A stretch of 64,000 nucleotides of DNA from Escherichia phage LPEK22. Shown piece after piece: positions 19,854 through 45,700 of this stretch (position 1 is the stretch's first letter; every line of letters begins with the position of its first letter). A model generated the notes under the pieces. It saw only the letters and a program-made list of their open reading frames with translations. It was not told the DNA's origin and searched no databases. The position numbers were made by a program, and so were the translations under genes. The stretch lies in the sequence record OK283619.1; one strand, given 5' to 3'.

Positions 19854-19892
19854 AGATACCCCACACTGGTCGTATGGGGTATTTAGGATGGA

Positions 19893-27442: not shown

Positions 27443-27758
27443 TCCGGAGCCTCACCGAATTGATTAAATGTCTCCATTATTATATTGGAGATACGTTTAT
27501 TGAATATAAACGCAGGAATGGCCAATAAAATAATGACAGTGATTATTAATAGGTAAAAACTACTTTTCTACAACATCAAGAAACTGTATCTTAACGCGGT
27601 GCCCTTCGAGTTGTGAGTGTTAACGAACAACGAGAAGCAGCCTCCATGGCTGTGGAATGGGACTGCCTGTCAAGGCGGTGTTACGAGCGAGGGCGTCAGC
27701 CCCCTCGCGAGTATATTCGAATAAATTAAACGCGCGCGAGCGTTTTGATTCCCGTTGG

Positions 27759-27766
27759 CTAAATAT
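27759..27766 (+). promoter_or_regulatory. late promoter motif CTAAATAT
   Basis: CTAAATAT about 40 nt upstream of the first late gene; same motif recurs before other late genes. Confidence 0.45.
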
Positions 27767-27805
27767 CTTCAACACCATATTCAAACTCAGGTGATGGAGA
27801 TTATC

Positions 27806-29587
27806 ATGGCCACGCAAACAGTTCCTTCACTCGACGTCAGAGCATTTGAATACATTATTAAACAGCGAATGAAAGCTGATCCCACCTTTAAAGATTATGA
27901 CTTTGAAGGTTCTGGTCTTAGTGCGATTATTCGTTTGTTGGCATCTGACGCGAACGCCATAGCCTTTATGCAAAACATGCTTAATGGTGAAGGCCATTTG
28001 AAGACAGCAAATCAACGTTCAAACGTCGGTTTATCTGCTGCATTTCTTTCCTACACGCCTGACAACTATCGGGCAGCATACATGTATGTCAACATCAAAG
28101 TTACGCCTTATGACGCCAGCACAGCCCCCAATGAGATCATCATGGATCGGCGCGTAATGTTCGTTGGGGCAAAAGACGGCAGTTCCTACAACTTTACTGT
28201 TGAGAAACCAGTGTCGGCAACGTTGACTGCAGACGGTTATTACATGTTCAACAATGTAAAGTTGGTACAGGGGAATTGGTTGTACAAGACATATGATGTT
28301 GAAGGAAGCGCGATTTCAACATATACGATTCCTTCTGGGAATGTCGATATCAATCATATGGTCGTGCAAGTACAAGAATCAGAGTCTTCCGACGTTTCGA
28401 CGACATATCAACGTTACAACAGTCCATTTGATCTGAGCCAATATGCCTACCTGTATTTCGTAGAATTGGGTATTGATGGTCTGTATGTGTTTGAATTCGG
28501 AGATGGTTATCTTTCGCGTCGAGTAGAAGATGGGAACGTCATATTCCTTCAATACTTAGAAACTTCTGGTGCTGATGGGAATGATATTACAAGCCTGTCA
28601 TCAGCGTCATCCATAGGCGGGTTTAACCAGGTCGACGTAGAATTGGTTTCCGAACGTAGCGCAGGTGGAGACGATCCGGAATCTATTGAGGACACTAAAC
28701 GGTTGGCTCCTTTAGCTTATCAGGCTGATGGTGCGGCGGTTACAGAAACAGATTATGGTGTATTGACTGAAAGGTTATTCTCCAACGTCTCCCGAGCTAA
28801 ATCATATGGTGGTGACACGCTGTCTCCTCCTGATTCTGGCTATGTTTACATCGCTGTTATACCTTCTGTTGGTGAGACACTTTCGGACGCTGAGAAGGCC
28901 GATATCGTTGCTGCTCTGGACAAGTATAATGTGGGATCTATTACCCCCAAAGTGGTAGACTCCGAGATCACATATATCCAAGTCTCAACGACTATATTTT
29001 GGGATCCTACTTCTACAGTCTACGTTGAAGAACAGATGAAAGTTGTTGTTGGAAACAGTATCGTTAAATGGGGTGAAAATAATCTCGGCGGATTTGACCA
29101 ATTGTTTGACAAAGAAATATTGCAGGAAGCAATTACAAAAATGGAACGTTCTATCAACTCGAATATTACTTCAGTTGGTTATAAACGCCATTTTAAACCT
29201 GATTATGGAGTCTTAGACAGTTTCACATTCAGTTATGGACGAAGTATCAAACCTGGTTCTGTGAAAATAACGGGGTTCAAACCGCTTCCTGCCGAGGTGG
29301 ATTTCACTTACTACATGCGCGACAATAATGGCGATTTGAACATGTATAAAGTGAATAACAATGACACGACAAAAGAGTTTTTAGTTCAAAAAACAGGGGT
29401 TGTGGATTATGCAAATGGGGTTGTAGACCTTCAGCAGATCACGGTCTCTAACTATAACCCTGAAGGGGTGACCATAGTCGTGTTACCGGATGGACTGAAC
29501 CAGAACATACAGGCTACACAAAACCAAGTATTCAAGATTGGTGATGTGGTTGTTACGCCAGAGGTGCGCTATGTCCAAAGATCTTAA
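27806..29587 (+). CDS. baseplate wedge protein (gp6/Baseplate-J-like), putative
   Basis: 594 aa from ATG 27806 (GGAG RBS; MATQTVPSLD...); first gene of the late block; size and position fit a baseplate wedge subunit; no motif verified. Confidence 0.45.
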   Translation: MATQTVPSLDVRAFEYIIKQRMKADPTFKDYDFEGSGLSAIIRLLASDANAIAFMQNMLNGEGHLKTANQRSNVGLSAAFLSYTPDNYRAAYMYVNIKVTPYDASTAPNEIIMDRRVMFVGAKDGSSYNFTVEKPVSATLTADGYYMFNNVKLVQGNWLYKTYDVEGSAISTYTIPSGNVDINHMVVQVQESESSDVSTTYQRYNSPFDLSQYAYLYFVELGIDGLYVFEFGDGYLSRRVEDGNVIFLQYLETSGADGNDITSLSSASSIGGFNQVDVELVSERSAGGDDPESIEDTKRLAPLAYQADGAAVTETDYGVLTERLFSNVSRAKSYGGDTLSPPDSGYVYIAVIPSVGETLSDAEKADIVAALDKYNVGSITPKVVDSEITYIQVSTTIFWDPTSTVYVEEQMKVVVGNSIVKWGENNLGGFDQLFDKEILQEAITKMERSINSNITSVGYKRHFKPDYGVLDSFTFSYGRSIKPGSVKITGFKPLPAEVDFTYYMRDNNGDLNMYKVNNNDTTKEFLVQKTGVVDYANGVVDLQQITVSNYNPEGVTIVVLPDGLNQNIQATQNQVFKIGDVVVTPEVRYVQRS

Positions 29588-30425
29588 TAATGGACACAAC
29601 GGGGTTAAGTATGAAACTCCGTTGTTCTACCAGAATGATTTCCCTCTGTTCATAGAATTTATGGACACGTTCTTCAATTGGTTGTATAGACAGCAGGGGT
29701 TCACTCAAGAAGAGATCTTGGCATATCTGGCAGATACGTCTAGTTGGATGAATCCTGAGAGTGAAGATTCTCCGGTTAAACAGCTGATTGATTTAAAGGC
29801 TGACAAGACTCCAGGCTCAGAGGCCAAGGATTATTTGTCTGATAAATTCTTGGTTCGTACCTTTGAGAACATGATGGCTCTGGATGCCGAAGAACTTTTA
29901 GATGCCGACGGAAGGCCGCTACTGTCAATAGAAGATAAGAACAAACAGATAGATGACTGGTATAATGATTTTGGTTTCCAACGAACCGTTGATAAATCAT
30001 TTCAGGAATTTGGTCATTTTATCCCAGTTGGTTCGGATTCTTTGTTGACAACCACGGGCGATACGTTCTCTGTTTATATCGAAGGAACTAAACGAAGAAC
30101 TCTGGATCATCCGCGTTGGCTGAAATTGTTGAAACACATCTATAAAATACGTGGAACAAAGAAAGCGATTGAATTGTTCTTTTGGATATATTTCGGTTGT
30201 CCAGTCAGCGTCTATTTTACGAAAGAAGACATAGGCGGTCTGGACGGAAATTTTGAATGTGACGGCACGACAGGGATGCGTGATGATTACTATTATGATG
30301 AATACACTTATGTTATAGGAGTCCCAGGCGACGTATCTGATTTTGAAGGTGTGTTTGAGCGCGTCTTCCGTCAGCATTTTCATCCTGCTGGATTTACTGT
30401 ATTCCTAGAAAGCACAAGGAGCTAA
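29571..30425 (+). CDS. baseplate/tail-fibre-associated protein, putative
   Basis: About 284 aa from internal ATG (MSKDLNNGHNG...), overlapping the upstream gene end. Confidence 0.4.
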   Translation: MSKDLNNGHNGVKYETPLFYQNDFPLFIEFMDTFFNWLYRQQGFTQEEILAYLADTSSWMNPESEDSPVKQLIDLKADKTPGSEAKDYLSDKFLVRTFENMMALDAEELLDADGRPLLSIEDKNKQIDDWYNDFGFQRTVDKSFQEFGHFIPVGSDSLLTTTGDTFSVYIEGTKRRTLDHPRWLKLLKHIYKIRGTKKAIELFFWIYFGCPVSVYFTKEDIGGLDGNFECDGTTGMRDDYYYDEYTYVIGVPGDVSDFEGVFERVFRQHFHPAGFTVFLESTRS

Positions 30426-30427
30426 AA

Positions 30428-31618
30428 ATGGCCGATTTCCTGAGTCAATATACAGGTCAGCAGATAGATCAGATATTGGGTTCTGTTGACGACAAAGTAA
30501 GTAAAAACGACGTCATTGATGATTTTGAAGTCAGCGACCCATTGTTTCCACCGTCTGCTCGCCTGACATACGAGTTGAAAAGATCTGTTGACACAATCAA
30601 TGATACTTTGGCCAACAAAGTTATTCGGACAGATAGTGGTGAACAAACAATCAATGGCAAAAAGACTTTCAATGCTTTGTTGGTGACCAATGGGGGTATA
30701 CAAGTCCCTGCTGGAAAATCCGTTTCAATCACAGATGAACCAACGAACTCGACAGATGGTGTTAACCTGAGTATGTTGAGAAAGCATGGCGTCAGTGAAG
30801 ACACTACCCCGCCTGGTTCTGGTTTGGCTGGGGAGTTGTTGACATCCGGATATTACAAATTCAATTTGGATTTCACCAGATTGTCTGCGTATACCGGACC
30901 AACGTTGCCGACTTCAGTTCCAGTACAAACAGATTCTGGAGCGCGTTATTGGGCAATGACTGCATTTTTTGATGCGTTGTTTGCAGATAACCGATTTAAT
31001 GGATATGTGACAACGACAGCGTATGATGCAGATATGCTGAGTTTAGAGTCTCAAATTAATAACATCAACACGTCGTTGAACGGGAAAGTCAACACCTCGA
31101 CTTACAACACTAAGATGGCGTCGTTGGATTTGAGTATCTCCAATATCAACACGTCTCTGGGTAATAAAGTCGAGGTCAGCACATATAATACGAAGATGAC
31201 TTCCTTGGACGGCAGTATCAGTTCTCTCACGACTGGTAAGGTCGATGTATCAACGTATAATGCCAAAATGACCACAATTGATAACAGTTTAGGGAACGCA
31301 GTTTATCGCACAAAAACAAACTTGTCGTCATACACGGTTTCGGCTTCTGGAACGACGGCTCTTCCAGATTTTGATTTGGTGAACCTTTGTCAAATACTGG
31401 TAACTGCGCAATGGGGGACGGGTAACGTTGTTGACACATATCGAGTAACCATAACTCGTGACGGAACGATCAAATCAGAGTTGTTGGTTCAGAAAAGTAC
31501 GAGTGGTACAGTGACGTTCACAGGGGCTGTGGTGGGTGGTAAATTGAGAATTTCCGTTGTTAATGCGAATACAACAACCGCTTGTTCTGTCGATTATTCT
31601 ATTGCAGCTTCTTTCTAA
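30428..31618 (+). CDS. tail-fibre-like protein with internal tandem repeats
   Basis: 396 aa; four imperfect repeats of about 26 aa (STYNTKM[AT]SLD.SIS.INTSLGNKV); Ser/Thr/Asn-rich. Confidence 0.55.
   Translation: MADFLSQYTGQQIDQILGSVDDKVSKNDVIDDFEVSDPLFPPSARLTYELKRSVDTINDTLANKVIRTDSGEQTINGKKTFNALLVTNGGIQVPAGKSVSITDEPTNSTDGVNLSMLRKHGVSEDTTPPGSGLAGELLTSGYYKFNLDFTRLSAYTGPTLPTSVPVQTDSGARYWAMTAFFDALFADNRFNGYVTTTAYDADMLSLESQINNINTSLNGKVNTSTYNTKMASLDLSISNINTSLGNKVEVSTYNTKMTSLDGSISSLTTGKVDVSTYNAKMTTIDNSLGNAVYRTKTNLSSYTVSASGTTALPDFDLVNLCQILVTAQWGTGNVVDTYRVTITRDGTIKSELLVQKSTSGTVTFTGAVVGGKLRISVVNANTTTACSVDYSIAASF
31010..31300 (+). repeat. imperfect tandem repeats (about 78 nt unit) inside the fibre-like gene
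   Basis: Repeated DNA coding the YNTKM-SLD-SIS-INTSL-NKV peptide unit; coordinates approximate. Confidence 0.5.
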
Positions 31619-31620
31619 AA

Positions 31621-31631
31621 CTAAATACCCC
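31621..31631 (+). promoter_or_regulatory. late promoter motif CTAAATACCCC with downstream 5'UTR hairpin
   Basis: CTAAATACCCC then inverted repeat TACCCCTA...TAGGGGTA immediately before ATG 31665. Confidence 0.5.
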
Positions 31632-31664
31632 TAGATGACATGAATACATTTAGGGGTATTACAA

Positions 31665-34600
31665 ATGGCCAACAAACCAACACAGCCTCTTTTCCCTTTG
31701 GGTTTAGAAACTTCTGAGTCTTCGAACATAAAAGGCTTCAACAACTCCGGCACTATTGAGCATTCCCCTGGTGCCGTAATGACATTTCCTGAAGATACTG
31801 AAGTTACAGGTCTTCCATCTTCTGTACGTTACAATCCTGATAGTGATGAATTTGAAGGTTATTACGAAAACGGTGGTTGGTTGTCTTTGGGGGGCGGTGG
31901 AATACGCTGGGAAACGCTCCCTTACGCTCCCTCTAGCAATTTGTTAGAAGGTCGTGGTTATCTCATTAATAATACCACAGGGACATCTACAGTGGTTCTC
32001 CCTTCCCCTACGCGTATTGGGGATTCCGTTACTATTTGTGATGCTTATGGGAAATTTGCCACTTACCCATTGACCGTGTCTCCTTCTGGAAATAATTTGT
32101 ATGGCTCCACTGAAGACATGGCTATAACAACTGATAACGTATCAGCAACGTTCACTTGGTCTGGACCTGAACAAGGTTGGGTTATCACATCCGGCGTCGG
32201 TCTTGGCCAAGGCCGTGTCTACAGTCGTGAAATCTTTACACAAATTTTGGCGTCTGAAACAAGTGCTGTCACTCTCAATACTCCACCAACAATCGTGGAC
32301 GTGTATGCTGACGGAAAACGTCTTGCGGAATCCAAATATTCACTAGATGGGAATGTAATCACTTTCAGTCCTTCTTTGCCAGCCAACACAGAACTTCAGG
32401 TGATTGAATATACTCCGATTCAATTGGGTAATGGCGGTGGTTCTGGTTCTTCTACGATTACCTGGGTCTATAATGGGGGTTCAGCGATTGGCGGTGAAAC
32501 CGAAATCACGTTAGACATCGTTGTTGATGATGTTCCGGCCATTGATATAAACGGAAGTCGCCAGTATAAAAATCTGGGGTTCACATTCGATCCATTAACC
32601 AGTAAAATCACTCTTGCGCAAGAACTGGATGCAGAGGATGAAGTTGTTGTAATTATCAATGGAACGCCAAACATCTATAATCAAATTGATTATACTTTGC
32701 GGGAAGTGGCTCGTGTAACCAATGTTAAAGATACAGAGGTCGTTTATTTTAGTGTTGGTGCTGTGTTAAGCGGGTATAAAGTTATCTACGATAAAATAAC
32801 ACAGAGATCATATTTTATTCCAGAGTTACCGACTGGAACCACGGCAGTCAGCCTTAGTTCTTCGGCTGTGCTTGTACATTCTGCTGGTAGTGTTGATCTG
32901 GGCGCATTAGCTGTATCTCGTGAAGAATATGTTACCTTGGCTGGGACATTTGATTCTGGTGCTGTCATCAATACTAAAAATGAATTACTCACCCATACTG
33001 ATGGAAAGTATCGTTGGGATGGTACACTTCCTAAAACTGTAGCTGCTGGCTCAACACCTGCAACAACTGGAGGCGTTGGTTCGGGAGCGTGGTTGAGTGT
33101 TGGTGATGCCACTGCCCGCCAGTGGGTAGCTAATAATTATATCAATAGTAAATTCGAGAAGTTTGGGTCTTTCTTGCAAGGTTCAGTTTTAACCACCAAC
33201 GAGCAAGCTCTTGTTGATTCAAGTGGTCTTTTCTGGGTTAAATATGGTGCTATACAAAGTGGTGGTTATACAGTAGCGCCGGGAACTGTTCCAGACTATC
33301 CCGATTTTTACTGTGTTGGATATTTAACAGATTATGATTGGCAGTCTGTTACAAACTGGGGTGCTGATAACAACTATTCTATCGCAGATAAGATCGGTGT
33401 AGACGCGGTCGATGCTATAAACCTCGCAGGTTATCATGCGGAGAAACGTGCGGAACTATTCGGATCCCAGCAAGTTGTCATGGTTCCTGCTGGCACTTAT
33501 CTGTTGGATAAAACGACTCTTGTGGAAGGCACGGCGCATGGTCTGACTATTTATCGTAATCAGGAAGTTATGATTTTTCTTCGCAACAACGTTACTTTCA
33601 TCGGCGATGGCGACGCAACGTTACTGTATGTTGCCGATGGTGTTGTTGAGCGCAATAAGGAAAACGGGGGCACTAAAGGCTTTGTAGTTTTCGGTGATGG
33701 TATTCGTGAAATTCAGAACGCATATGTCCACGATATGCTAATTGATGAAAATGGTGACAATAACCTTGTCCCGCCATTGAACTGGTCTGGAGCACAAGCT
33801 CATTGTCCAGCAGTAGCTTGTTACGAAGGTAGTAATGGTGTGACTGTTTCTGGAGTTAACGTCAAGAATGCTCCTGGTGCAAACGTAATGGTATTCCAGG
33901 AAGCTCAGGCAGCGTTCAACAGCTACAATACGCGTGTAGAGAATTGCAACTTCTATCGCGTTGCTGACGCTGTGACTGGAAACAGTAACCTAATAGACCA
34001 CTCATCAATAAGAATTCATTCCGATGGCTACGTTATAAATAACGTTAAATGTATCCAGCCAACCATGTCAGACATGTGTACGGTATTTGAGTGTCATGGT
34101 AATGGGATCGTTGATGGATGCATCACCAAAAAAGCTCGCTACCCATTCCTGAAGGCTAACGACGGTGCTACATCGACATCTATAGTCACCTTCACAAATA
34201 ACGTCTGTGAGGACGCAGGTAGTGCTTTGGTTCTGGATACCGTACCTAACGTTACAACTGTTGCCAGATTTATTGGTAATACTGTAACGCTACGATCAGA
34301 AAAGCAAGTTATCGGGTATCCTAATACTGCGGCATTCACAACACAGCAGCCGTCTGTTTTGTCATCTGACCCAACCACTATTAATGCAATTATTTACTCT
34401 GCAAATAATAACATATTGCAAAAAAACAGAGCCGCAGATTGGACAACTGAACAAAAAGCTGCAAACGTTGCTTATGACCTGGACTATTTCAAAGAAGTTG
34501 TTAGTGAAAATAACACTTTCTCAGGTTTTTGGGGGTGTGTTCGCTTGGGTAAACAAAAAACAGGTGCTACTTTCAACAGCAATGACTCTTTTGTCTCTTG

Positions 34601-35168
34601 CGGGACCAACGGTTCACCTCAATTATCAGACAACACAGCCATAAGGTTTACCAATAAATTTGCCAACGATTATCTTGTTCACCTTGATGAAATGCATATT
34701 AAATGGAATATGACAAAATGTCAGTTTGGTGGTGTCCTGGGTTTATTGCAACAAGCAGCAGGAGTGACTGTTGGTGTTGTGCAATTCACTGCTGATATTA
34801 AAACAGATAGATGGATGCATCCAGCGCTTGGGATAGCTCCACTATCCGTACAGGATTACTACTTCAACATTGATGTATACAGTGATGTGAATACCAGTGA
34901 ACCTTTATACGGATACGCTGGTATTCATGGGCAAATTAATGTTGACTCGCCAACTCAACCATATGTTAAACAATTTTACAAATACAAACCAAACACCCAG
35001 AATGGATGGTGGTTTAAAGGCATTTTAGCAACTGACACAACTTCTGTTCCTGACAGGCCTTTTGGTAATGCGTCTGGTGACAGATATGATGTTATTGCTG
35101 GGGCATCAAATATTTTCGGGTATCGACATAATGGTACAACATGGGATGCAATGAAATTTACATCATAG
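31665..35168 (+). CDS. tailspike protein, long form (N-terminal anchor region + shared module + C-terminal catalytic/receptor-binding domain)
   Basis: 1167 aa; shares the module VKDTEVVYFSVGAVLSGYKVIYDKITQRSY...KYRWDGTLPK...GAWLSVGDA with the three downstream genes; Gly/Asn-rich C-terminal region. Confidence 0.75.
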   Translation: MANKPTQPLFPLGLETSESSNIKGFNNSGTIEHSPGAVMTFPEDTEVTGLPSSVRYNPDSDEFEGYYENGGWLSLGGGGIRWETLPYAPSSNLLEGRGYLINNTTGTSTVVLPSPTRIGDSVTICDAYGKFATYPLTVSPSGNNLYGSTEDMAITTDNVSATFTWSGPEQGWVITSGVGLGQGRVYSREIFTQILASETSAVTLNTPPTIVDVYADGKRLAESKYSLDGNVITFSPSLPANTELQVIEYTPIQLGNGGGSGSSTITWVYNGGSAIGGETEITLDIVVDDVPAIDINGSRQYKNLGFTFDPLTSKITLAQELDAEDEVVVIINGTPNIYNQIDYTLREVARVTNVKDTEVVYFSVGAVLSGYKVIYDKITQRSYFIPELPTGTTAVSLSSSAVLVHSAGSVDLGALAVSREEYVTLAGTFDSGAVINTKNELLTHTDGKYRWDGTLPKTVAAGSTPATTGGVGSGAWLSVGDATARQWVANNYINSKFEKFGSFLQGSVLTTNEQALVDSSGLFWVKYGAIQSGGYTVAPGTVPDYPDFYCVGYLTDYDWQSVTNWGADNNYSIADKIGVDAVDAINLAGYHAEKRAELFGSQQVVMVPAGTYLLDKTTLVEGTAHGLTIYRNQEVMIFLRNNVTFIGDGDATLLYVADGVVERNKENGGTKGFVVFGDGIREIQNAYVHDMLIDENGDNNLVPPLNWSGAQAHCPAVACYEGSNGVTVSGVNVKNAPGANVMVFQEAQAAFNSYNTRVENCNFYRVADAVTGNSNLIDHSSIRIHSDGYVINNVKCIQPTMSDMCTVFECHGNGIVDGCITKKARYPFLKANDGATSTSIVTFTNNVCEDAGSALVLDTVPNVTTVARFIGNTVTLRSEKQVIGYPNTAAFTTQQPSVLSSDPTTINAIIYSANNNILQKNRAADWTTEQKAANVAYDLDYFKEVVSENNTFSGFWGCVRLGKQKTGATFNSNDSFVSCGTNGSPQLSDNTAIRFTNKFANDYLVHLDEMHIKWNMTKCQFGGVLGLLQQAAGVTVGVVQFTADIKTDRWMHPALGIAPLSVQDYYFNIDVYSDVNTSEPLYGYAGIHGQINVDSPTQPYVKQFYKYKPNTQNGWWFKGILATDTTSVPDRPFGNASGDRYDVIAGASNIFGYRHNGTTWDAMKFTS
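32700..33125 (+). repeat. shared tailspike N-terminal module, copy 1
   Basis: DNA/protein similarity to 35325-35750 and 40360-40790; approximate coordinates. Confidence 0.6.
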
Positions 35169-35174
35169 TAAAAA

Positions 35175-35195
35175 CCCCGCTTCGGCGGGGTTCTT
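35175..35195 (+). terminator. intrinsic terminator CCCCGC-TTCG-GCGGGG
   Basis: Hairpin followed by TTCTT; same stem-loop reused at four other sites. Confidence 0.6.
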
Positions 35196-35231
35196 ATTAT
35201 ATCCATGTTTATAAAATTTTGTTAATTCAGA

Positions 35232-35242
35232 CTAAATACCCC
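35232..35242 (+). promoter_or_regulatory. late promoter motif CTAAATACCCC
   Basis: Motif followed by hairpin CCCCATA-N12-TATGGGG that ends 7 nt before ATG 35272. Confidence 0.5.
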
Positions 35243-35271
35243 ATATTGGTCATCCTTTATGGGGTATTATC

Positions 35272-37368
35272 ATGATTTCTCAATTCAATCAACCACGCGG
35301 CTCCACTTCCATAGAAGTTAACAAACAATCTATCGCTCGAAATTTCGGTGTCAAAGAAGACGAAGTCATTTATTTCACTGTCGGTATTGATCTCAGCGGA
35401 TTTAAAGTAATTTATGATGAGTCTACCCAACGGGCTTATTCTCTTCCTTCAGGTATTGTTTCAGGAACGACTGCGATAAGTCTGAACGAACAAGCCATCC
35501 TTACTCATTCTTCTGGCTCTGTTGATCTCGGGGAATTAGCAGTAAGCCGCGAAGAATATGTGACTTTACCTGGTTCTTTTAATTTCGGCCATACTATTAA
35601 TGTGAAAAATGAACTTCTTGTTCACGATGATGAAAAATATCGATGGGATGGTGCATTACCTAAAGTTGTTCCTGCTGGTTCAACTCCAGCATCAACTGGT
35701 GGCGTTGGTTTAGGTGCTTGGGTTAGTGTTGGTGATGCTGCATTTAGGCAGGAAGCTAATAAGAAATTCAAATATTCAGTAAAGTTATCTGATTATTCTA
35801 CATTACAGGATGCAGCGACAGCAGCCGTAGATGGATTGCTTATTGATGTTGACTACACTTTTACTGCAGATGAGAATGTAGATTTTAGCGGTAAAGTTTT
35901 AATCATTGAATGCAAAGGAAAATTCATTGGCGATGGTATGTTGGTTTGGAATGGTTTGGGTGCGGGCTCAGTAATTAAGAAACCGCACATGCATACTAAA
36001 ACTACGCCGTATACTGTTTACCGATTCGATGCAAACGGTAATTGGGTTACAGACCCAACACAAGTTCTGGCATCTGTTCAGCAGCGTTTGGATGTTGGAT
36101 ATAAGCCAAATATTAACGATTTAGATATTTGGGACGACCTTCCTGATAATGTAAAAAATCAGGTTGCTGGTGCTACTTTGCGAATAATGAGCGGCGATAA
36201 TATCATCGTAGAGAACCCAGAAGCTACATTTGGTGGTTATCTATTTACTTTATGTAATAGGATTCTTGTTAAGAATCCACGCAATTTTATTGCTTTGGAA
36301 TCGGGCATTACATTTGAGAACCATCATACAACTGCATGGGGTACTGGCAACTGGGTTGTTGGGGGTGAGATAAAATATGGCTCTGGTTCCGCTGTACTGT
36401 TCATTCGCAATGATGGTGGTACAGACCATGATGGTGGAGTAAGGGATTTAATCTCATACCGTGTTGGAGAATCAGGTATTAAAACCTATCAGAACGAAAT
36501 TGGAGGTCGTTCAGCCAGGAACTACCGTTTAGTGTTCGACAATATAACTACAATCCAGTGTTACTATGATGGTATTGATGTTAATGCTGACACAGGGTCG
36601 CCAACTGAACGTGTGGATGACTACTCACTCGCAGAGTATCCATGGTTCCACCTACCTACTCAACATATCATCCGTAATATTATTACTCGTGATTGTATGG
36701 GGATTGGTGCTTGGTGGGATGGTCAGAAAAATATTATTGATAATGTTGTTACTTATGAGGCCCATAAGGAAGGCGTCTTCGATAGGGGTACTAACAATGA
36801 TATTACTAACATTACTGTAGTAGGTGCGAATAAGGATTTAACTAACCTAAATCAGCTTACCTGTGAGGGAGGTAGTAGACTTCGTGGTATTAACATCCAT
36901 GCATATACTACACAAGGTTACGCTATATACGCTCCGTCTTCAGAAGTAAGTAATGTTTCCTGTGCTGGTTCCGGTACTAAGAAATTACTATGTACCTATA
37001 TAAGCGATATTCAGGGAGGTAATATCAATGTTCAGCATAGTGCCAACCAAATGACACTTGCAATGCAACCTGCTATGGGTGGTACTACAAACCCATCTTT
37101 GCTTATGACGGCAGATTGCCAGGTTGCTACACCAGGGGGTGAGGCAAGTATTGTCAAGCTTTCGGCAATTCAGGAGGGTGTACGTGTAGGTGAGTTTCAG
37201 CTTAACCGCTTAGGCTTTAAGCATATGAGTATACCTGCTGCCCCTTTACAATTACCAGAGAGCGCTCTGGAACATAATTCATCTATAGGATTCTTCTTCG
37301 GAAGTGACGGAGCATTGAGGTTGCTTGCTAAAAAACCAGATGGAAGTTATGTAACATACACACTTTAA
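35272..37368 (+). CDS. tailspike protein, short form (shared module at extreme N-terminus)
   Basis: 698 aa; begins directly with VKEDEVIYFTVGIDLSGFKVIYDESTQRAYSLP...KYRWDGALPK...GAWVSVGDA; distinct C-terminal domain. Confidence 0.75.
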   Translation: MISQFNQPRGSTSIEVNKQSIARNFGVKEDEVIYFTVGIDLSGFKVIYDESTQRAYSLPSGIVSGTTAISLNEQAILTHSSGSVDLGELAVSREEYVTLPGSFNFGHTINVKNELLVHDDEKYRWDGALPKVVPAGSTPASTGGVGLGAWVSVGDAAFRQEANKKFKYSVKLSDYSTLQDAATAAVDGLLIDVDYTFTADENVDFSGKVLIIECKGKFIGDGMLVWNGLGAGSVIKKPHMHTKTTPYTVYRFDANGNWVTDPTQVLASVQQRLDVGYKPNINDLDIWDDLPDNVKNQVAGATLRIMSGDNIIVENPEATFGGYLFTLCNRILVKNPRNFIALESGITFENHHTTAWGTGNWVVGGEIKYGSGSAVLFIRNDGGTDHDGGVRDLISYRVGESGIKTYQNEIGGRSARNYRLVFDNITTIQCYYDGIDVNADTGSPTERVDDYSLAEYPWFHLPTQHIIRNIITRDCMGIGAWWDGQKNIIDNVVTYEAHKEGVFDRGTNNDITNITVVGANKDLTNLNQLTCEGGSRLRGINIHAYTTQGYAIYAPSSEVSNVSCAGSGTKKLLCTYISDIQGGNINVQHSANQMTLAMQPAMGGTTNPSLLMTADCQVATPGGEASIVKLSAIQEGVRVGEFQLNRLGFKHMSIPAAPLQLPESALEHNSSIGFFFGSDGALRLLAKKPDGSYVTYTL
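35325..35750 (+). repeat. shared tailspike N-terminal module, copy 2
   Basis: See copy 1; approximate coordinates. Confidence 0.6.
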
Positions 37369-37385
37369 TTTATCTTGAGCAAAAA

Positions 37386-37406
37386 CCCCGCTTTGGCGGG
37401 GTTCTT
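37386..37406 (+). terminator. intrinsic terminator CCCCGC-TTTG-GCGGGG
   Basis: Hairpin followed by TTCTT. Confidence 0.6.
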
Positions 37407-37441
37407 ATTATACCTTTGTTCATAAATTTTATTAGTTCAGA

Positions 37442-37452
37442 CTAAATACCCC
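37442..37452 (+). promoter_or_regulatory. late promoter motif CTAAATACCCC
   Basis: Same arrangement as upstream of gene 35272. Confidence 0.5.
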
Positions 37453-37483
37453 ATATTGGCAAATCCTTATGGGGTATTTTCAA

Positions 37484-40249
37484 ATGACCAGAAATGTAGA
37501 AGAATTATTCGGCGGCGTAATCACAGCTCCCCACCAGATTCCTTTCACGTATAAATCAAATGTCGGTGGAGAAACTTTCCTTTCTTTGCCGTTCCATCCC
37601 GTCACTGGTGTTATCACAATCAACGGTGGTATGCAAGTTCCGTTAGACAACTTTGAAATCGAAGGAAATACATTGAATCTCGGACGCGCATTGTCCAAAG
37701 GCGATGTTGTGTATTGCTTATTCGATAAAATTCTTTCGCCAGAAGATACAGCCAAAGGTATCCGCATATACAAATTTCAGGCCGTAGGAGGTGAAACCGA
37801 GTTCACTCCTGATTTCACATCTTATGGAGTCCAATCTCTTTATATCGGTGGCGAGTACAAAACCCCCGAAATTGAATATTCCTATGACAGTACGACAGGA
37901 AAAGTATCTTTGCAAACTGCACTGACTGCAGGCGTTTGGGTAGTCGCTGAAATGTCTGTTAAACAACCGAATATCAGTCCGGCGTTTGACCGAAGTATTC
38001 AAGAAATCGCCCGTTCTGCTAATGTAAAAGACTCTGAAGTCATCGTTAGTACGGACACCATATCTTTGTTGGATGGGAAGAAAGTTGTTTATGACATAGC
38101 GGCGCAAACCAGTTATGGTTTACCAACCATTCCTGATGGTTCTGTCATTTCTTCTGTATCTGCTGGGAAATTGAATTACAATCCAGGTGATGTGCAGGTT
38201 GATTTGTTGCCTTTAGAAGATTCATTTATTAATGTGATAAACACTCTGGGGCGAAATGATGGTGCCAAGTATATTGGAGAATGCCATTCTGTTGCTGATC
38301 TCAGGAATACTGAACCCACTATGGATGGACAACGCATTATTCTTAAGCAACACACTGCGGGTACTCTTCTTGGTGGAGGGGTATTCCGTGCGTTAATTGA
38401 TGGTACAGGAAAGACTGATAATAACGGTACTGTGATCAAAACTGTTGGCGGCGCAGCATGGTTACGTGTTAATGCTGATAGAGTTAACCCATTCATGTTT
38501 GGTGCTTTGGGTGGTTCTAATGATGATACTATTCCAGTACAATCTTGTGTGGATAGTGGTAAGGCCACACAATTAACTGGTGTACATTACGTTAGCAATA
38601 TCCAGTTAAAATATAATACGTCGTCTATTTATGGGTCTGGATTACATTACTCAAGGTTGCATCAGTTGCCTTCTGCTACTGGGAATTGTATTACCATAAA
38701 AGATACATGCTCCCTTATTGTATTAGACGCCTTTGGGGTATATGGCACAGGTGCACAACAAGGCACGTCATTTACTGCGGGCACAACAGGTATCTATGTA
38801 GAAACTCCTTCAGGTCTCTCAGCCGATTATCCGTTCCACACTACCGCAGACCCAAGACGGGACTTGTGTATTTCTAAGGTCCATATAGCAGGTTTTGATG
38901 AATATGGGTTAAATATTGATAGTGGTAACTTTAGTGTTACTACAGATTCTCTTTTAGTCAACCACATCAATCAGGTGGGTGTCCGTTGTGCTACTACTGA
39001 TTGGACTTGGACAAATATCCAGGTTAATACCTGCGGTAAACAATGTCTAGTTCTTGATGGTTGTGGTAATGGTCGTATTATTGGCGGTAAATTCATTTGG
39101 GCTAACTGGCAACCTTATGGTACAGTAGGACAGTTCCCAGGCATTACTATTAATAACAGCCAGAATATGGTTATTAATGGTATTGAGGTACAAGATTGTG
39201 GCGGGAATGGTATTGAGATTAGCGAGTCATATTCAATTTCCATGAACGGATTGAACACCAATCGTAACGGCATCAATGCTAACAACACTTTCTACAACAT
39301 CGTATTTAACAAAAGTGATGCAGTTATCAACGGATTCGTAGGACTCAATTATGCCGCGAATAGTGGTTCAGGTGCTAACTCTAGTGCAGGCAATTTTCAG
39401 TTCCTGTCTAATGATTGTAGTGTCACCATTAATGGTGTGGTTGAGACTGGTTATATGGGCATTAACTTTATTGGTGATAACAATATTATCAACCCCACCA
39501 ATTCCGACCTGAGCATTAACGGATTGGTTAATTATTCCAAGACTGGTTTGCAAACCATGAACGAGACCCCTACATTTGATGGTGTTAGCACTACACCTGT
39601 TTATGTAAGTGTCCCATCTTCTGTAGGGCAAGTAAATGGTCTGAGACTATCACAAGCCAACAAAGATAAATTACTGTATTCAAGAACAGCAGGTCCAGAA
39701 GGTATTACCATGGCTGCTGTTGTAGTACCCACCATATCTGGAGCTGAAGTATTTAACTTCATGGCCATTGGTTCAGGGTTTAGTGATACATCCAACAGTC
39801 TTCATCTTCAATTAGTTATAGACGCTTCTGGAAAACAAACAATTGCTTTGCTATTGGGGGGCGATGGTACAACCCAAATTTTATCTGGGGATTTACCTAA
39901 CGACCTTAAACTACAAAGTGGTGTACCATATCATATAGCTATTGGTGCTAAACCTGGATATTTCTGGTGGAGTATTCTTAATATTCAGACGGGTAAGAGA
40001 ATCAGACGGTCATTCCGAGGCGCTTATTTAGCCGTACCATTTAATTCTATATTCGGATTAACTTCTTCATTAACATTCTTCTCGGATAGCAATGCTGGTG
40101 GGGATGCTTGTTCTGGGGTGGGCGCTAAAGTGTATGTTGGTATGTTCTCTTCCGAGAACGATTATGTAGCTTCACGATACTACAATCTGATTAATCCGGT
40201 AGACCCTACTAAGTTAATTAGTTACCGTATATTGGATTCTTCTATTTAA
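37484..40249 (+). CDS. tailspike protein, long form (diverged copy of the shared module)
   Basis: About 921 aa; start set at second in-frame ATG 37484 (MTRNVEELF) by analogy with the neighbouring gene, track start is 37469; diverged module IQEIARSANVKDSEVIV; Asn/Gly-rich C-terminal region. Confidence 0.7.
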   Translation: MTRNVEELFGGVITAPHQIPFTYKSNVGGETFLSLPFHPVTGVITINGGMQVPLDNFEIEGNTLNLGRALSKGDVVYCLFDKILSPEDTAKGIRIYKFQAVGGETEFTPDFTSYGVQSLYIGGEYKTPEIEYSYDSTTGKVSLQTALTAGVWVVAEMSVKQPNISPAFDRSIQEIARSANVKDSEVIVSTDTISLLDGKKVVYDIAAQTSYGLPTIPDGSVISSVSAGKLNYNPGDVQVDLLPLEDSFINVINTLGRNDGAKYIGECHSVADLRNTEPTMDGQRIILKQHTAGTLLGGGVFRALIDGTGKTDNNGTVIKTVGGAAWLRVNADRVNPFMFGALGGSNDDTIPVQSCVDSGKATQLTGVHYVSNIQLKYNTSSIYGSGLHYSRLHQLPSATGNCITIKDTCSLIVLDAFGVYGTGAQQGTSFTAGTTGIYVETPSGLSADYPFHTTADPRRDLCISKVHIAGFDEYGLNIDSGNFSVTTDSLLVNHINQVGVRCATTDWTWTNIQVNTCGKQCLVLDGCGNGRIIGGKFIWANWQPYGTVGQFPGITINNSQNMVINGIEVQDCGGNGIEISESYSISMNGLNTNRNGINANNTFYNIVFNKSDAVINGFVGLNYAANSGSGANSSAGNFQFLSNDCSVTINGVVETGYMGINFIGDNNIINPTNSDLSINGLVNYSKTGLQTMNETPTFDGVSTTPVYVSVPSSVGQVNGLRLSQANKDKLLYSRTAGPEGITMAAVVVPTISGAEVFNFMAIGSGFSDTSNSLHLQLVIDASGKQTIALLLGGDGTTQILSGDLPNDLKLQSGVPYHIAIGAKPGYFWWSILNIQTGKRIRRSFRGAYLAVPFNSIFGLTSSLTFFSDSNAGGDACSGVGAKVYVGMFSSENDYVASRYYNLINPVDPTKLISYRILDSSI

Positions 40250-40299
40250 AAAATACACCCCTCTTAGGAGGGGCTTACTAGAAAAACAAAGAGGTATGT

Positions 40300-42612
40300 A
40301 TGAACGAGATGTTTAGTCAAGGTGGTAAGGGTTCAACTGGAATCCTAACCAACAAACAAGCAGTAGCTAGACACTTTGGGGTTAAGCAATCTGAGATTGT
40401 TTACTTTTCGGTTGGTGTAGATTTAGGGGGGTATAAAGTTATCTATGACAAGGAAACGCAAAGAGCTTATTCCTTACCTGCTGGTATTGCTTCTGGTACT
40501 ACTGCCGTCAGTCTTAATACTGCTGCTGTACTTGTACATTCAGCAGGTTCTGTAGACTTAGGTGCATTAGCTGTATCTCGTGAAGAATACGTAACCTTAC
40601 CTGGTTCGTTTGATTCTGGCTCTACGCTTAACGTTAAAAATGAATTACTCACTTATACAGATGGTAAGTATCGCTGGGATGGAGCATTACCTAAAGCTGT
40701 CCCTGCCGGTTCAACTCCTGCATCAACTGGTGGTATTGGTCTTGGCGCGTGGGTTAGTGTTGGTGATGCTTCTTTGAGAACACAACTGGCAAACGGCAAT
40801 GGCTCGTTGATTGGAATTCACCCGCAGGGAACGCTAAATAATGTATTAACTGTGCGCACACCTGAACAGTACAATGCGGTAGGCGACGGAATAGATGACG
40901 ATACTTCAAAATTAAAAGAAATGCTTTCAGACATAAACAACGTTCCTGAAACACTTCCTGATGCTGCGGCTGTAAACTCGTACATGGAGCAAGTAGCAGT
41001 AAAAATTAACCTGACCAAGTTATACCGATTCACAGAGACGCTATACATACCCCCAGGTGTTTCAATTGAAATGCCAGCACCAAACTTTTTTACTCGTGAG
41101 TGTAAGCAAGGATTGTTTTATGACCCAGTAGATAAGAATACAGCAGCAATCAGCTTAATGGTGTACCGTAAACAACCTGATGGTTCATACAAACTCAATA
41201 AAGATGTAGATTATTATCCTACTGGGTTAGATATTGATAATGGGTACGCTGTAACATGTGCCAGAAAAATTGATATTAGTAACCTTAACCTGATTACAGC
41301 ACCAGGTGTAAAGGTTGGTGTTAAATGGATAGGTGGGGCAGGTTGCACTACAAAAGGGTTATCTATTGGGGAGAATACAGGGAGCGATATTACAACAGCA
41401 AGACTGCCAAGAGTAGGATTGTTGCAGTCAGCATCATGGGGTTCTGTTCATGAAAATCTACGCATCCTGTATAAAACTCAGGGCGCAGTGTTCATTGACT
41501 CTAATGGCGGTGCTACTGTAAACAATGCTTACATTTCCCGCCTTGGTAATACCAATGGTGAGCTAGAACAAGCGGTGTATAAACCAGCAGGGTTTACTGA
41601 GGTAGGTGATGTTGCCATCACTCAGTTTGCAGGTTCAGAGGTTAAGTTTAATAGCCCAATCATCGAACAAGCATCATTCGACTTTGTTCACGCTGGCCGG
41701 GATACTGATTCCTACGGTTTATTTATGGTTGATAAACCCCACATTGAATCATCTGGTGGGAAGAAAAAACATAGTTTCTACCTGATCAATACCAGTTCAG
41801 ATGTTACGTTGTCAGGGGTAGGTCTTTCCGGACAAGACCCTGATCTAGATAGTATGTACTTCCTTAAAAACTGCCCAGAAACTGCCCGAAATGTTGTCAG
41901 AGGACAAATGCCAGTAGGTGGTTTAAAACTCGTTAGAGGTACTGGTAACTACCCTACATTGGTACTCGACTGTACAAATATGGGAAGTCAATTCCAATTT
42001 GGGGAAGTTGGTGACATTTTCTATATCAAAGATGTTGTTGGTGTAAAAGCAGACACTCTATACATAGATCCTGTAAATGGTAATAACTACAACTGGGGAT
42101 TTAACGGAACCAAACCTATAAGAGAGCTACTTAATATTTCAAAGTTATGCCAGCTATTCAAGTGCAAAAGAGTTTATCTTAACCCAGGTGAGATAGCCAT
42201 TACCTCTAACACGGAGTTGCCGATGGTTAATTTTGAAGGTACTGGTAGCTTGAAGGCAAATTCTGGTAGTAGCTTCCTTATCAAAACCGGTGGGACATTA
42301 TCATTAATTGGGCTTGCTGGTATATCTACAGATGGCGGCCATATGTTTAGAGTCTCCACCACGGAAAAAGTAAACATACATACTAACTGCCCAGTGGATT
42401 CTGGTGCGGCCTATGTTGTACTAAGTGAGATTCAGGGTAATATTGAATACAGGCAATTATTCTATTCTGTAAATTGTTCTAAGTATGTAGGTGCAACAGC
42501 TGGACAAACTATCGCTGGTGTCATGGTTAAGACAGCGTCAAGACCGACAGGAATAGATGCTGATCCAGTTGATGGTAATACTTCTCTAACCTATAAAATT
42601 ATAGGATCATAG
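40300..42612 (+). CDS. tailspike protein, short form (shared module at N-terminus)
   Basis: 770 aa; N-terminus VKQSEIVYFSVGVDLGGYKVIYDKETQRAYSLP...KYRWDGALPK...GAWVSVGDA; distinct C-terminal domain. Confidence 0.75.
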   Translation: MNEMFSQGGKGSTGILTNKQAVARHFGVKQSEIVYFSVGVDLGGYKVIYDKETQRAYSLPAGIASGTTAVSLNTAAVLVHSAGSVDLGALAVSREEYVTLPGSFDSGSTLNVKNELLTYTDGKYRWDGALPKAVPAGSTPASTGGIGLGAWVSVGDASLRTQLANGNGSLIGIHPQGTLNNVLTVRTPEQYNAVGDGIDDDTSKLKEMLSDINNVPETLPDAAAVNSYMEQVAVKINLTKLYRFTETLYIPPGVSIEMPAPNFFTRECKQGLFYDPVDKNTAAISLMVYRKQPDGSYKLNKDVDYYPTGLDIDNGYAVTCARKIDISNLNLITAPGVKVGVKWIGGAGCTTKGLSIGENTGSDITTARLPRVGLLQSASWGSVHENLRILYKTQGAVFIDSNGGATVNNAYISRLGNTNGELEQAVYKPAGFTEVGDVAITQFAGSEVKFNSPIIEQASFDFVHAGRDTDSYGLFMVDKPHIESSGGKKKHSFYLINTSSDVTLSGVGLSGQDPDLDSMYFLKNCPETARNVVRGQMPVGGLKLVRGTGNYPTLVLDCTNMGSQFQFGEVGDIFYIKDVVGVKADTLYIDPVNGNNYNWGFNGTKPIRELLNISKLCQLFKCKRVYLNPGEIAITSNTELPMVNFEGTGSLKANSGSSFLIKTGGTLSLIGLAGISTDGGHMFRVSTTEKVNIHTNCPVDSGAAYVVLSEIQGNIEYRQLFYSVNCSKYVGATAGQTIAGVMVKTASRPTGIDADPVDGNTSLTYKIIGS
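40360..40790 (+). repeat. shared tailspike N-terminal module, copy 3
   Basis: See copy 1; approximate coordinates. Confidence 0.6.
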
Positions 42613-42705: not shown

Positions 42706-45700
42706 ATGCAATCTACAAATTTAAACCGTCGCCCGTATTGGGATGACTGGAATCCTGGGAAACGTTTTTCACGGATTCTTTTTCGTCCGATGCCTATCAA
42801 GGTTCAGACTCGAGAACTGAACCAGATGCAGACTATTCTTCAGGATCAAATTGAAAAACTAGGCAACCATTTGTTCAAAGATGGTTCTATGGTTATCCCT
42901 GGCGGTCTGACGATTACCAATGCCGCAGTCTCTTTGAAATTCACTTTGGCTGGTGGTACTGAATTCACTGATCTGGAAGGTATTTCTGAACTCTACGTTT
43001 TGGGGAAGGACAATAATGCCAAAGCACGTGTGTTGTCTCTTGAACGTGATCTGTCTGCTCCTGATACGATGCTGGCTATCCTTGAGATGACTGAAGCGGG
43101 TAATGCTGACGGATTCCATGTTAACGATAATCTGTATTTCCAGACTTACGACGTGAATGATAATTTCATTCGTATTGGTTATGGTATCGCAGCTGCAGTA
43201 ACTGGTTCTATCGTCGCTCGTATGACGAAAGGCGTTTACTTCATTCGTGGGATGTTCCTAGACGTTGATGACGCAACTCTTATCGTTGATAAAACTTCTA
43301 ACATCACTTCCCACCGCATCGGATTTAAAGTCACCGAAACTATTGTCACCGAAACAGAAGATGAATCCCTTTATTCAAATGCTCAGGGAACGATTAACTC
43401 CAAAGCCCCAGGCGCTCATCGTCTTCGAATAGATCTGGTCTTATCTCGATTTGATTATGACGCCGTGGTTGAAGATTTTGTTGAACTGGCCAAAGTTCGT
43501 GATGGTAAAATCCAGTCTATGGTGACTCAGTCCACCTATAATATTCTGGAAGACACGTTGGCCCAACGGACGTATGAAACCAACGGCGATTACAACGTTT
43601 CAACGCACCAGATCGACATCCGCGAACACCTGAAAGTCAATAACAATGGCGGGGTATTCAATGCCGCTGATGGCGGTGACGAGAGCAAATTTGTTTCTGT
43701 GATGAAACCAGGCATCTCCTATGTTCGCGGTCGACGTATCGAAAATGTCGGGGAAGAACTGGTTATTGTCGACAAGGCGCGGGATACCGATGTCCTGAAT
43801 AACACCCCTGTTGCGGTGGCCACAGGCAATTATCTGGTCACTAAGAATTCTAAAGGTGTGCCAGTGATATCCCGCACCGTTCGATACAAATTACTGAATG
43901 CTTCAGGCGTTACCCAGGCTACAGCACTTTGTATATCAGCTGAACGTAATTCAACAGAATTTCGTCTGTATATGCGCGACCTGGTCGTTACTGGCGATGC
44001 ATCCACTATCACCAAAGTGTCTTACGAAGAAAGCGGTATCACCATGTTCTCTGCTGAACTGGAATCCAATCAGTTTAACCAGAGTTCTATGATAGATCTG
44101 ATCTTCTCTCTTCCGGTATTCGGTGTCAAGACTTTAGCACCAACTGGCTCCGTGGATATCAACTACACTGTTCTCAGAACGTATAAAGTGACGTTGGACA
44201 ACAGCGGCGCGGGTTCTATTTCTGCTCCATTGGGATATAGTTTTTCCCCAGAATTTTCGTTGTACTCTGCAGCGAAATCTGATGGTTCTGAAGCGCAGTT
44301 CGATATCTCTGGTTCTTTGTCTTTGACTGGTTCTCCGGTCGGTTCGGCGCTGCAGATTTCTCTGGGCAGTGGTAATGCTAACCAGTCAATCAATTTGCTG
44401 GCGCTGATGATTCGTACCACGGCCACAATCAAAACGAAGACCATCACTGAAACAACTGAAACAGTGACATTCACCTCGCAGACTAGCCGTCCTTTGGCGA
44501 ATCACGATGGTTGGAAATTGGTGTCGGTCAAAAACGATACTGGCGCAGACGTGACCTCCAGCTTCGTCCTAGATGGCGGACAGCGTGATGCAGGGTATTA
44601 CAAGTCTAACTTGTTATCCAGCGCTGGAGCAATCTCAGGGACGTATACAGTGGTGTATCAATACTTCGCCCACAGTTCCGGTGATTTCTTCTCTGCTGAT
44701 TCGTATACTTCGATGGATTATAAAGATATCCCGAATTATACATCTTCTACATCAGGCGCGGTGTACGGCCTGGCAGATAGTTTGGATTTCCGTCCGAAAA
44801 TCACCAACGGAACTTCTGACACAGATATGGTTCGTCCAAACACTGCAGTTATTCTGGACACAGAATATTATCTGCCGCGTATCGACGCGATTTATCTGGC
44901 AGACAACGGCGTGTTTGGTGTGGCTCGTGGCATCAGTTCTAATAATCTGGCTTCTCCAGCAATCCCAGCGAACGCCATGCGTTTGTATGAATTGTTGATC
45001 CCGCCGTATACACCGAATATTGATGATATCCAAATTCGAACTATTGATAATCGTCGTTATACAATGCGCGATATCGGTAAACTGGAAACCCGTATTTCCA
45101 ATGTTGAATACTATACCTCTCTGTCACAGCTGGAATCTTCAGCGATGACACAGCAAGTGTTCGACCCCATTACGGGTAATCCTCGTTTCAAAAATGGTAT
45201 CGCAGCTGATCCGTTCAAAGACTTCCGGTTGATTGATGACTTGTCTGAAGATTGGATGGGTTCTATCGATACCGAAAACGGACGTCTGCGCCCGTTTGTA
45301 CAACAAAACGTTGTTGACATGACTCCGGTTGGCTGGAACAAAGTGATGGATGGGATGGTGGTTTGTAATTACACGCCTGAAATCTCGGTGAACCAAGAAT
45401 ATGCGACGACGACGATCAACGTTAACCCGTATGCAGTATTCAATTGGGAAGGTTTCTTGAAGATTAACCCGACCACAGACTACTGGTTCGAAAACTATTA
45501 TGTTGCGCCGCGTATTATCAATGAAACGATCAACACCCGTGGTACTGTACAAGAAGGTTCAGTGTACGGAACATGGCGTACTGTTTCTGTTTCTGATCGT
45601 GTTTGGGAACCGCATGGTGCTGGTGGTGTGTGGTGGGGATATCGTTACCGCACGACTGTTTCTGCCCGTGATGTCACCACATATACATACACGGACAAAA

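Follow-up and report, generated by a model that had tools for sequence, protein, structure and literature searches.

Fibers with shafts built from short repeats, and copy-number differences in such shafts, are well known. In the adenovirus fiber shaft and in phage collagen-like repeats, the array spaces a distal domain away from an anchor, and its copy number differs between relatives. T4 fibritin, the trimeric product of wac, consists of about 12 short coiled-coil segments in series, with Ser/Thr/Asn-rich surfaces, short breaks between the segments, and a small C-terminal beta domain, the foldon; length within its family varies via segments. Further points of comparison are T4 gp9 (1qex/1s2e), the tail-fiber connector of the baseplate wedge, together with Gp9 of Klebsiella phage KP1 (9f4a), and BppL, the lower baseplate and receptor-binding protein of the lactococcal phage TP901-1. 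The N terminus of T4 gp9 binds gp7, and the long tail fiber is coaxial on its C-terminal domain (PMC3004832). Here, we describe one gene of Escherichia phage LPEK22 (OK283619.1), located in a stretch of 64,000 nucleotides (nt) that is called the window below. The window belongs to a Kuttervirus phage (Ackermannviridae, CBA120/ViI-like), and the gene encodes a 396-amino acid (aa) protein with an internal repeat array (Table 1). This repeat protein is a previously undescribed example of a repeat-built shaft, uncharacterized but widely sequenced.

The protein is probably a small virion fiber, presumably a trimer, that combines an N-terminal anchor, a small variable domain, a spacer of four coiled-coil segments, and a gp9-like end, and its length probably evolves in heptad-quantized steps plus whole units. 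An earlier note, made from the sequence alone, had proposed four imperfect tandem repeats of 26 aa in a fiber-like protein, encoded at about 31010-31300. Self-comparison of the protein (BLOSUM62, 20-aa windows, 200 shuffles as a control) gave top diagonals of 76 (offset 27), 68 (offset 24), and 60 (offset 51), against shuffle scores with a mean of 30.0, a standard deviation of 3.7, and a maximum of 44. The four repeats are therefore real, and the internal periodicity of the protein is significant. The unit length of 26 aa was only an approximation, as the actual units measure 27, 27, 24, and 24 aa, and the proposed location was close, the array spanning 31016-31321 and thus ending about 20 nt further downstream.

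The signal is weak in the DNA. In a DNA self-comparison, 38 of 60 bases were identical in the top 60-nt window (offset 81), against a shuffle maximum of 34. Nucleotide identity between units is 42-57%, and the longest word common to two units is 11 bp. Units 2 and 3 have 16 of 24 residues in common and use the same codon in 6 of these 16. Tandem Repeats Finder, applied to 30000-32000, detected no DNA tandem repeat in the array (31010-31320), and the head-to-tail copies similar enough to detect and misalign that define a DNA tandem repeat or variable-number tandem repeat (VNTR) were not found. The repeats are recognizable at the protein level only. The units are old duplications that have been kept alike by selection on the protein.

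Of the two shaft types named in the earlier note, a coiled coil and a beta-spiral, the predicted helices and the heptad spacing favor the former. AlphaFold2, run on the monomer with a 34-sequence alignment, placed one helix in each unit, with breaks of 2-3 residues at the 'V-x-S-T' unit boundaries; confidence across the repeat helices was moderate (predicted local distance difference test scores of about 56-79). In a pool of more than 100 non-redundant homologue units, positions 3 (Y), 7 (M), 10 (L), 14 (I), 17, and 21 were occupied by LIVMFYW in 100% of cases, which gives hydrophobic positions spaced 4-3-4-3-4, and a 41-aa unit of the family continues this pattern as 4-3-4-3-4-3-4-3-4 without interruption. 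Unit starts in 120 homologues are 20, 24, 27, 31, 34, or 41 aa apart, the sole exception being a spacing of 35 aa produced by a recent deletion. Since these spacings step by +4 or +3, the a-to-d and d-to-a steps of a heptad, they correspond to segments of 2-5 heptads plus a constant linker. Both the heptad a/d spacing and the helices separated by short breaks are thus those of a segmented coiled coil. The adenovirus and collagen-like shafts are a beta-spiral or a collagen triple helix, whereas an alpha-helical coiled coil with heptad-quantized unit lengths is predicted here.

In the proposed mechanism, each repeat unit would be one alpha-helical coiled-coil segment with the core Y-M-L-I-I/L-L-V spaced 4-3-4-3-4, and the 'GKV(D/N)x-ST' break that ends each unit would cap one helix and start the next, as in T4 fibritin. 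A coiled coil rises by about 0.15 nm per residue. On this basis, the array of 102 aa would reach about 15 nm, to which one unit would contribute about 3.6-4 nm, while the family range of 75-147 aa would correspond to about 11-22 nm. The segments are presumably parallel and extended, and the trimeric state is suggested by analogy with the trimeric relatives of the two end domains, gp9 and BppL.

The comparison with related phages revealed where the length of the protein changes. Homologues range from 369 to 441 aa, and in an alignment of 25 diverse homologues nearly all length variation falls within the repeat array. The first and last units are fixed, and between them lie 1-4 internal units of varying length, for a total of 3-6. 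The longest shafts, with 5-6 units, are found in Klebsiella-infecting Taipeivirus, whose gene is 1251 or 1323 nt long, a gap of one 24-aa unit. The earlier note had expected repeat number to change fiber length; differences in copy number and unit length do explain almost all of the variation in protein length, and a corresponding change in the fiber itself would follow from the predicted shaft. Two kinds of step may be involved. Half or whole heptads would be gained or lost within a unit, which would give units of 20, 24, 27, 31, 34, and 41 aa, and whole units would be gained or lost, which would give 3-6 copies.

Nearly all Kuttervirus phages have the 1191-bp allele. When the gene of Salmonella phage BPS5 was the query, 58 of the 60 closest phage records were 1191 bp long, one was 1194 bp long, and the remaining one, BPS5 itself, had 1272 bp. 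The BPS5 allele carries a perfect 81-bp tandem duplication (+27 aa) whose junction falls in the 11-bp direct repeat ATCAACACGTC. A second perfect 81-bp duplication, independent of this one and in another register, occurs in Escherichia phage A221 and has a junction repeat of 17 bp, and in the metagenomic contig L005 a 48-bp deletion is flanked by TCTCTGG (7 bp). Each of these variants occurs on one contig, and all three are singletons among more than 180 Kuttervirus records.

These variants also bear on the suggestion that the repeated DNA is a substrate for slippage or recombination. A stronger proposal would make the array a hypermutable contingency locus (a VNTR) in which replication slippage switches fiber length at high frequency. 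Three in-frame indels within the array, all at short direct repeats, agree with this proposal. However, the low identity of the copies, their scrambled synonymous sites, with most common residues differently coded, and the empty Tandem Repeats Finder result make the array DNA a poor slippage substrate, and the near-uniform allele length and the single contig behind each variant point the same way. We consider such a switch highly improbable, and the repeat array is not a hypervariable locus. The junctions of the three singletons in direct repeats of 7-17 bp show that slippage or recombination occurs, but rarely, so the suggestion holds in this limited sense. New variants would come from infrequent duplications or deletions between those short direct repeats of this size that have survived although the copies around them diverged.

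The shaft is proposed as a spacer with a conserved anchor, consisting of a helix and a neck, on its N-terminal side and a conserved gp9-like beta domain on its C-terminal side. The N-terminal module (conservation to reference 0.71-0.86) contains the neck motif 'GEQTINGKKTF...NGG..VP' and is also present on proteins with different distal parts. The Pfam model BppL_N (PF18338) matched the repeat protein with 19.3 bits (E 8e-4), under its gathering threshold of 25.8 bits, and the same model matched a relative with the same N-terminal module (P0136) with 31.4 bits, which passes. In a PDB profile search, TP901-1 BPP chains matched aa 51-96 (E 0.02), and these residues align with the N-terminal helix and the 'G(D/E)xTIxGxKTF' neck of BppL. 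This match is weak, all parts downstream differ, and the phage of the repeat protein is a myovirus. A PDB sequence search with the single protein gave chance-level matches only, to which the family profile added just the weak match to the BppL N terminus; an NCBIfam scan of the protein returned nothing meaningful. The small beta domain that follows is the most variable part of the family (0.39-0.63).

For the C-terminal domain, gp9 was ranked first by both fold searches, and the domain has a gp9-type beta fold. An hhalign comparison of the family with T4 gp9 was non-significant (E 0.044, probability 1.2%), and the two have no PHROG in common (967/677). The repeat protein differs from gp9 in several further respects. 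It has no sequence similarity to gp9, its coiled coil is internal, long, and repeated, and the middle (XD1-type) domain of gp9 was not recognized in it; moreover, Ackermannviridae are without long tail fibers. In hhalign comparisons for the same C-terminal domain, three distant proteins with the same N-terminal module (P0131, P0132, and P0136) gave non-significant matches (E 0.2-0.4); for P0131 and P0136, the best local matches line up with the C-termini of these proteins, no more than a hint at a possible common C-terminal domain. The BppL_N-like helix and neck, the helical shaft, and the C-terminal beta domain, together with the presence of an orthologue in virions, make the protein look like a fiber, as the earlier note had it.

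The virion evidence comes from LIMEstone1, in which ORF161, the orthologue with an equivalent genomic position, was identified in purified virions by electrospray ionization tandem mass spectrometry with 11 peptides and 50.6% coverage (PMC3296691). In Table 2 of that paper, it bears the undiscussed label 'Fibritin (T4 Wac)', which the GenBank record has dropped for 'unknown structural protein'. An orthologue of fibritin would sit at the neck and form the collar and whiskers. The segmented coiled-coil architecture resembles that of fibritin, a collar can be seen on these phages, the stretch from the gp7-like to the gp13-like gene contains no other fibritin-like gene, and T4 wac itself is contiguous with baseplate and short-fiber genes. 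On the other hand, no sequence relationship was detected: hhalign of the family against T4 wac gave a probability of 1.7%, and neither PHROGs 1056 and 9687 nor any Pfam fibritin model matched. The repeat protein has 4 segments, as opposed to the many more of fibritin, a gp9-like sandwich of about 100 aa in place of the foldon, and a BppL_N-like N terminus, and its gene stands beside wedge genes, upstream of the gp10-like tailspike genes in the gp8/gp9 slot and not in the post-gp12 slot of wac. A neck fibritin is thus an improbable identity for this protein. A second proteomic record is Sajous1 gp135, a 'putative tail fiber' beside a gene misnamed 'head closure', which was detected with 74 spectra (PMC10892097). 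From gene order only, we infer that gp135 is an orthologue of the repeat protein.

Gene order is a further source of information on the role of the repeat protein. In the window, the order is gp6-like, gp7-like, the repeat-protein gene, TSP4, TSP3, TSP2, TSP1 (the tailspike genes), VriC, and gp13-, gp14-, gp15-, gp16-, gp17-, and gp18-like. TSP4 has gp10-like XD1-3 domains (PMC8825819), so the T4-like order 6-7-[repeat-protein gene]-TSP4 (gp10-like)-...-13-14-15 puts the repeat-protein gene in the gp8/gp9 slot, in agreement with the gp9-like C-terminal domain. The gene starts 2 nt past the stop codon (30423-30425) of a Baseplate_wedge gene (PF23786); this stop lies between the Shine-Dalgarno sequence and the ATG of the repeat-protein gene, which suggests translational coupling. 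Attachment of the repeat protein to the baseplate is probable in this context, and the length of its shaft may have a functional effect. According to a 2024 review, Ackermannviridae are without gp9-gp11 and have baseplate prongs of unknown composition, and the three genes flanking the tsp cluster are baseplate genes whose function is unconfirmed (PMC11721090). A literature search found nothing on orf215, the CBA120 orthologue, nor any cryo-electron microscopy structure of a Kuttervirus baseplate.

Two more specific roles can be considered for a fiber at this position. In one, the protein would be a short tail fiber or 'prong', anchored by its N terminus, whose C-terminal knob contacts a conserved envelope component, e.g. 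the inner core of the lipopolysaccharide, once tailspike action has removed the O-antigen or capsule, and shaft length would set its reach. A conserved N-terminal module that is reused with other distal parts is the typical polarity of a fiber, many records carry the annotation 'putative tail fiber', the longest shafts occur in the Klebsiella-infecting Taipeivirus, and the prongs noted in the review are without an assigned composition. However, few parts of the protein are as well conserved as the distal domain when phages of Salmonella, E. coli, Klebsiella, Dickeya, and Serratia are compared, an unusual property for a receptor-binding tip, and for the prongs the review proposes VriC, not the repeat protein (PMC11721090). 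This role is somewhat unlikely, and about as probable as the adaptor role described next.

In the other, the protein would be an adaptor, the Ackermannviridae equivalent of gp9, with its N terminus docked on the gp7-like wedge protein and a C-terminal socket for the TSP4 anchor domain, much as gp9 holds gp34; the shaft would then set the distance of the branched tailspike 'star' from the baseplate. The first rank of gp9 in both fold searches, the two contacts described above for T4 gp9, and the location of the gene between the gp7-like gene and TSP4 with its gp10-like XD1-3 domains are consistent with this proposal. When genera with different hosts are compared, the two ends of the protein are conserved and its middle is variable, as expected if both ends bind phage partners. 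Against it stand the lack of detectable sequence homology to gp9 and the published inference of direct baseplate binding by the first ~80 residues of TSP4, although the binding partner was never named; in addition, a promoter-like motif of its own seems to serve the TSP4 gene. An adaptor is somewhat unlikely on this balance. It is doubtful, too, whether the whole orf215 family is an unrecognized gp9 counterpart of the Ackermannviridae, that is, a baseplate-anchored coiled-coil stalk with a TSP4 socket, at the root of the branched tailspike 'star', whose length is heptad-tuned to the thickness of the host polysaccharide and is longest in capsule-targeting Klebsiella phages.

The gene is found in many phage genomes. 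At the DNA level, it shares 99.9% identity with a gene of Escherichia phage 4HA11 and 95.5% with CBA120 orf215, and phrog_3838 ('unknown function') matches the protein over its full length (E 2.3e-218). Matches were obtained in 211 phage records by megablast and in 289 by tblastn; they come from Kuttervirus, Agtrevirus, Limestonevirus, and Taipeivirus, and also from Serratia, Yersinia, and Erwinia relatives. Most records annotate the family as hypothetical and some as a putative tail fiber or structural protein. One record, 'Pseudomonas phage Pa-sanjiao' (MN871475.1; host P. aeruginosa PAO1), contains a copy with 97.5% identity to the window and 99.8% to the BPS5 allele, and one Enterococcus-labelled record also matches the gene; these host labels look inconsistent with a Kuttervirus. 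Salmonella phage rabagast (MT074469.1, a 143-kb record) matches residues 1-130 only (2819-3208, 98.5% identity), which points to truncation or disruption of this copy or to a gap in the assembly. Minus-strand open reading frames (ORFs) within the gene (30422-30703, 30469-30804, and 31227-31439) were treated as mechanical by-products. By tblastn, none of the modules of the protein occurs a second time in the whole window.

The repeat is not restricted to this family. Unrelated and mostly long proteins (P0133, P0138, P0143, and P0144) contain many copies of a unit of this kind, 'KVD-x-S/T-x-Y-x-x-K-(I/M)-x-x-(L/I)-(D/E)', and tblastn found the module in Bacillus phage proteins as well, including gp255 of Bacillus phage G. 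In profile searches, about 80 clusters matched the repeat region alone (E<1e-3), and an exhaustive search of 1.84 billion representatives returned only 8 clusters at E<1e-30. Pfam scans of the repeat protein and of ten further proteins, which carry the repeat or are related to it at the N terminus, found no family for the repeat. Judged from these sequences, the repeat looks like a widespread, uncatalogued fiber-shaft repeat.

Some annotations of the neighboring genes probably need correction. The gene at 29538-30425 is named 'head closure Hc2' in RefSeq CBA120, LIMEstone1, and phrog_3465, and it matches Pfam Baseplate_wedge (PF23786) with E 9e-154; the LIMEstone1 paper names the wedge gene upstream of ORF161 gp7-like (PMC3296691). 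The genuine gp14-like Hc2 gene of the window is at 49212-49853, and the head closure name is probably a propagated annotation error. The ORF list starts the two wedge genes (27755-29587 and 29538-30425; 610 and 295 aa) at upstream TTG codons. Relatives annotate them as 592-593 and 284 aa, which puts the starts near 27806 and 29571, with a 17-nt overlap of both genes.

The spacer between the repeat-protein and TSP4-like genes (31619-31664) contains a hairpin at 31624-31660 with a 14-bp stem (RNA -19.1 kcal/mol, z -4.9), which is kept through to Limestonevirus though the flanking proteins are only 65% identical. The motif CTAAATACCCC overlaps this hairpin and recurs at 35232-35242 and 37442-37452, just before the TSP3- and TSP2-like genes, and on the minus strand at 19876-19886; these 4 matches compare with 0.8 expected. 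The LIMEstone1 record places a putative late promoter at the spot equivalent to the CTAAATACCCC spacer. No terminator was detected between the repeat-protein and TSP4-like genes, where the conserved promoter-like motif and hairpin are present.

Table 1. Coordinates in the window of the repeat-protein gene, its parts, and the neighboring features.
Feature	Position (nt)	Residues (aa)	Strand	Remarks
Shine-Dalgarno AAGGAG	30416-30421		+	6 nt before ATG; read from sequence
Gene for 396-aa repeat protein	30428-31618		+	ATG start; orthologue of CBA120 orf215 and LIMEstone1 ORF161
Conserved N-terminal module	30428-30787	1-120	+	proposed proximal anchor; helix 42-63, then neck
Small beta domain	30800-30997	~125-190	+	AlphaFold2 strands 130-176
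Repeat unit 1, TAYDADMLSLESQINNINTSLNGKVNT	31016-31096	197-223	+	27 aa; predicted helix 196-220
11-bp direct repeat ATCAACACGTC, first copy	31064-31074		+	BPS5 duplication junction with its twin
Repeat unit 2, STYNTKMASLDLSISNINTSLGNKVEV	31097-31177	224-250	+	27 aa; predicted helix 223-247
11-bp direct repeat ATCAACACGTC, second copy	31145-31155		+	81 bp downstream of first copy
Repeat unit 3, STYNTKMTSLDGSISSLTTGKVDV	31178-31249	251-274	+	24 aa; predicted helix 250-270
Repeat unit 4, STYNAKMTTIDNSLGNAVYRTKTN	31250-31321	275-298	+	24 aa, degenerate; predicted helix 274-293
C-terminal eight-stranded beta-sandwich	31325-31615	300-396	+	T4 gp9-like fold; conserved across genera
Four tailspike genes, TSP4-TSP3-TSP2-TSP1	31665-42612			1167, 698, 926, and 770 aa; order as in CBA120
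VriC-like gene	42706-47544			1612 aa; followed by gp13- to gp18-like genes

A repeat-built fiber shaft is in itself a textbook construction and is unsurprising. Ackermannviridae such as CBA120, Det7, and ViI serve biocontrol and detection, and their tailspikes are being re-engineered. The orf215 family is conserved in all genera that were searched, and its orthologue in LIMEstone1 is a virion component, but most records annotate it as 'hypothetical'. The addition or removal of 24- or 27-aa units may provide a simple handle to engineer reach, and with its proposed anchor, adjustable coiled-coil spacer, and gp9-like end the protein is a concrete candidate for the attachment point of the tailspikes or for an extra fiber.
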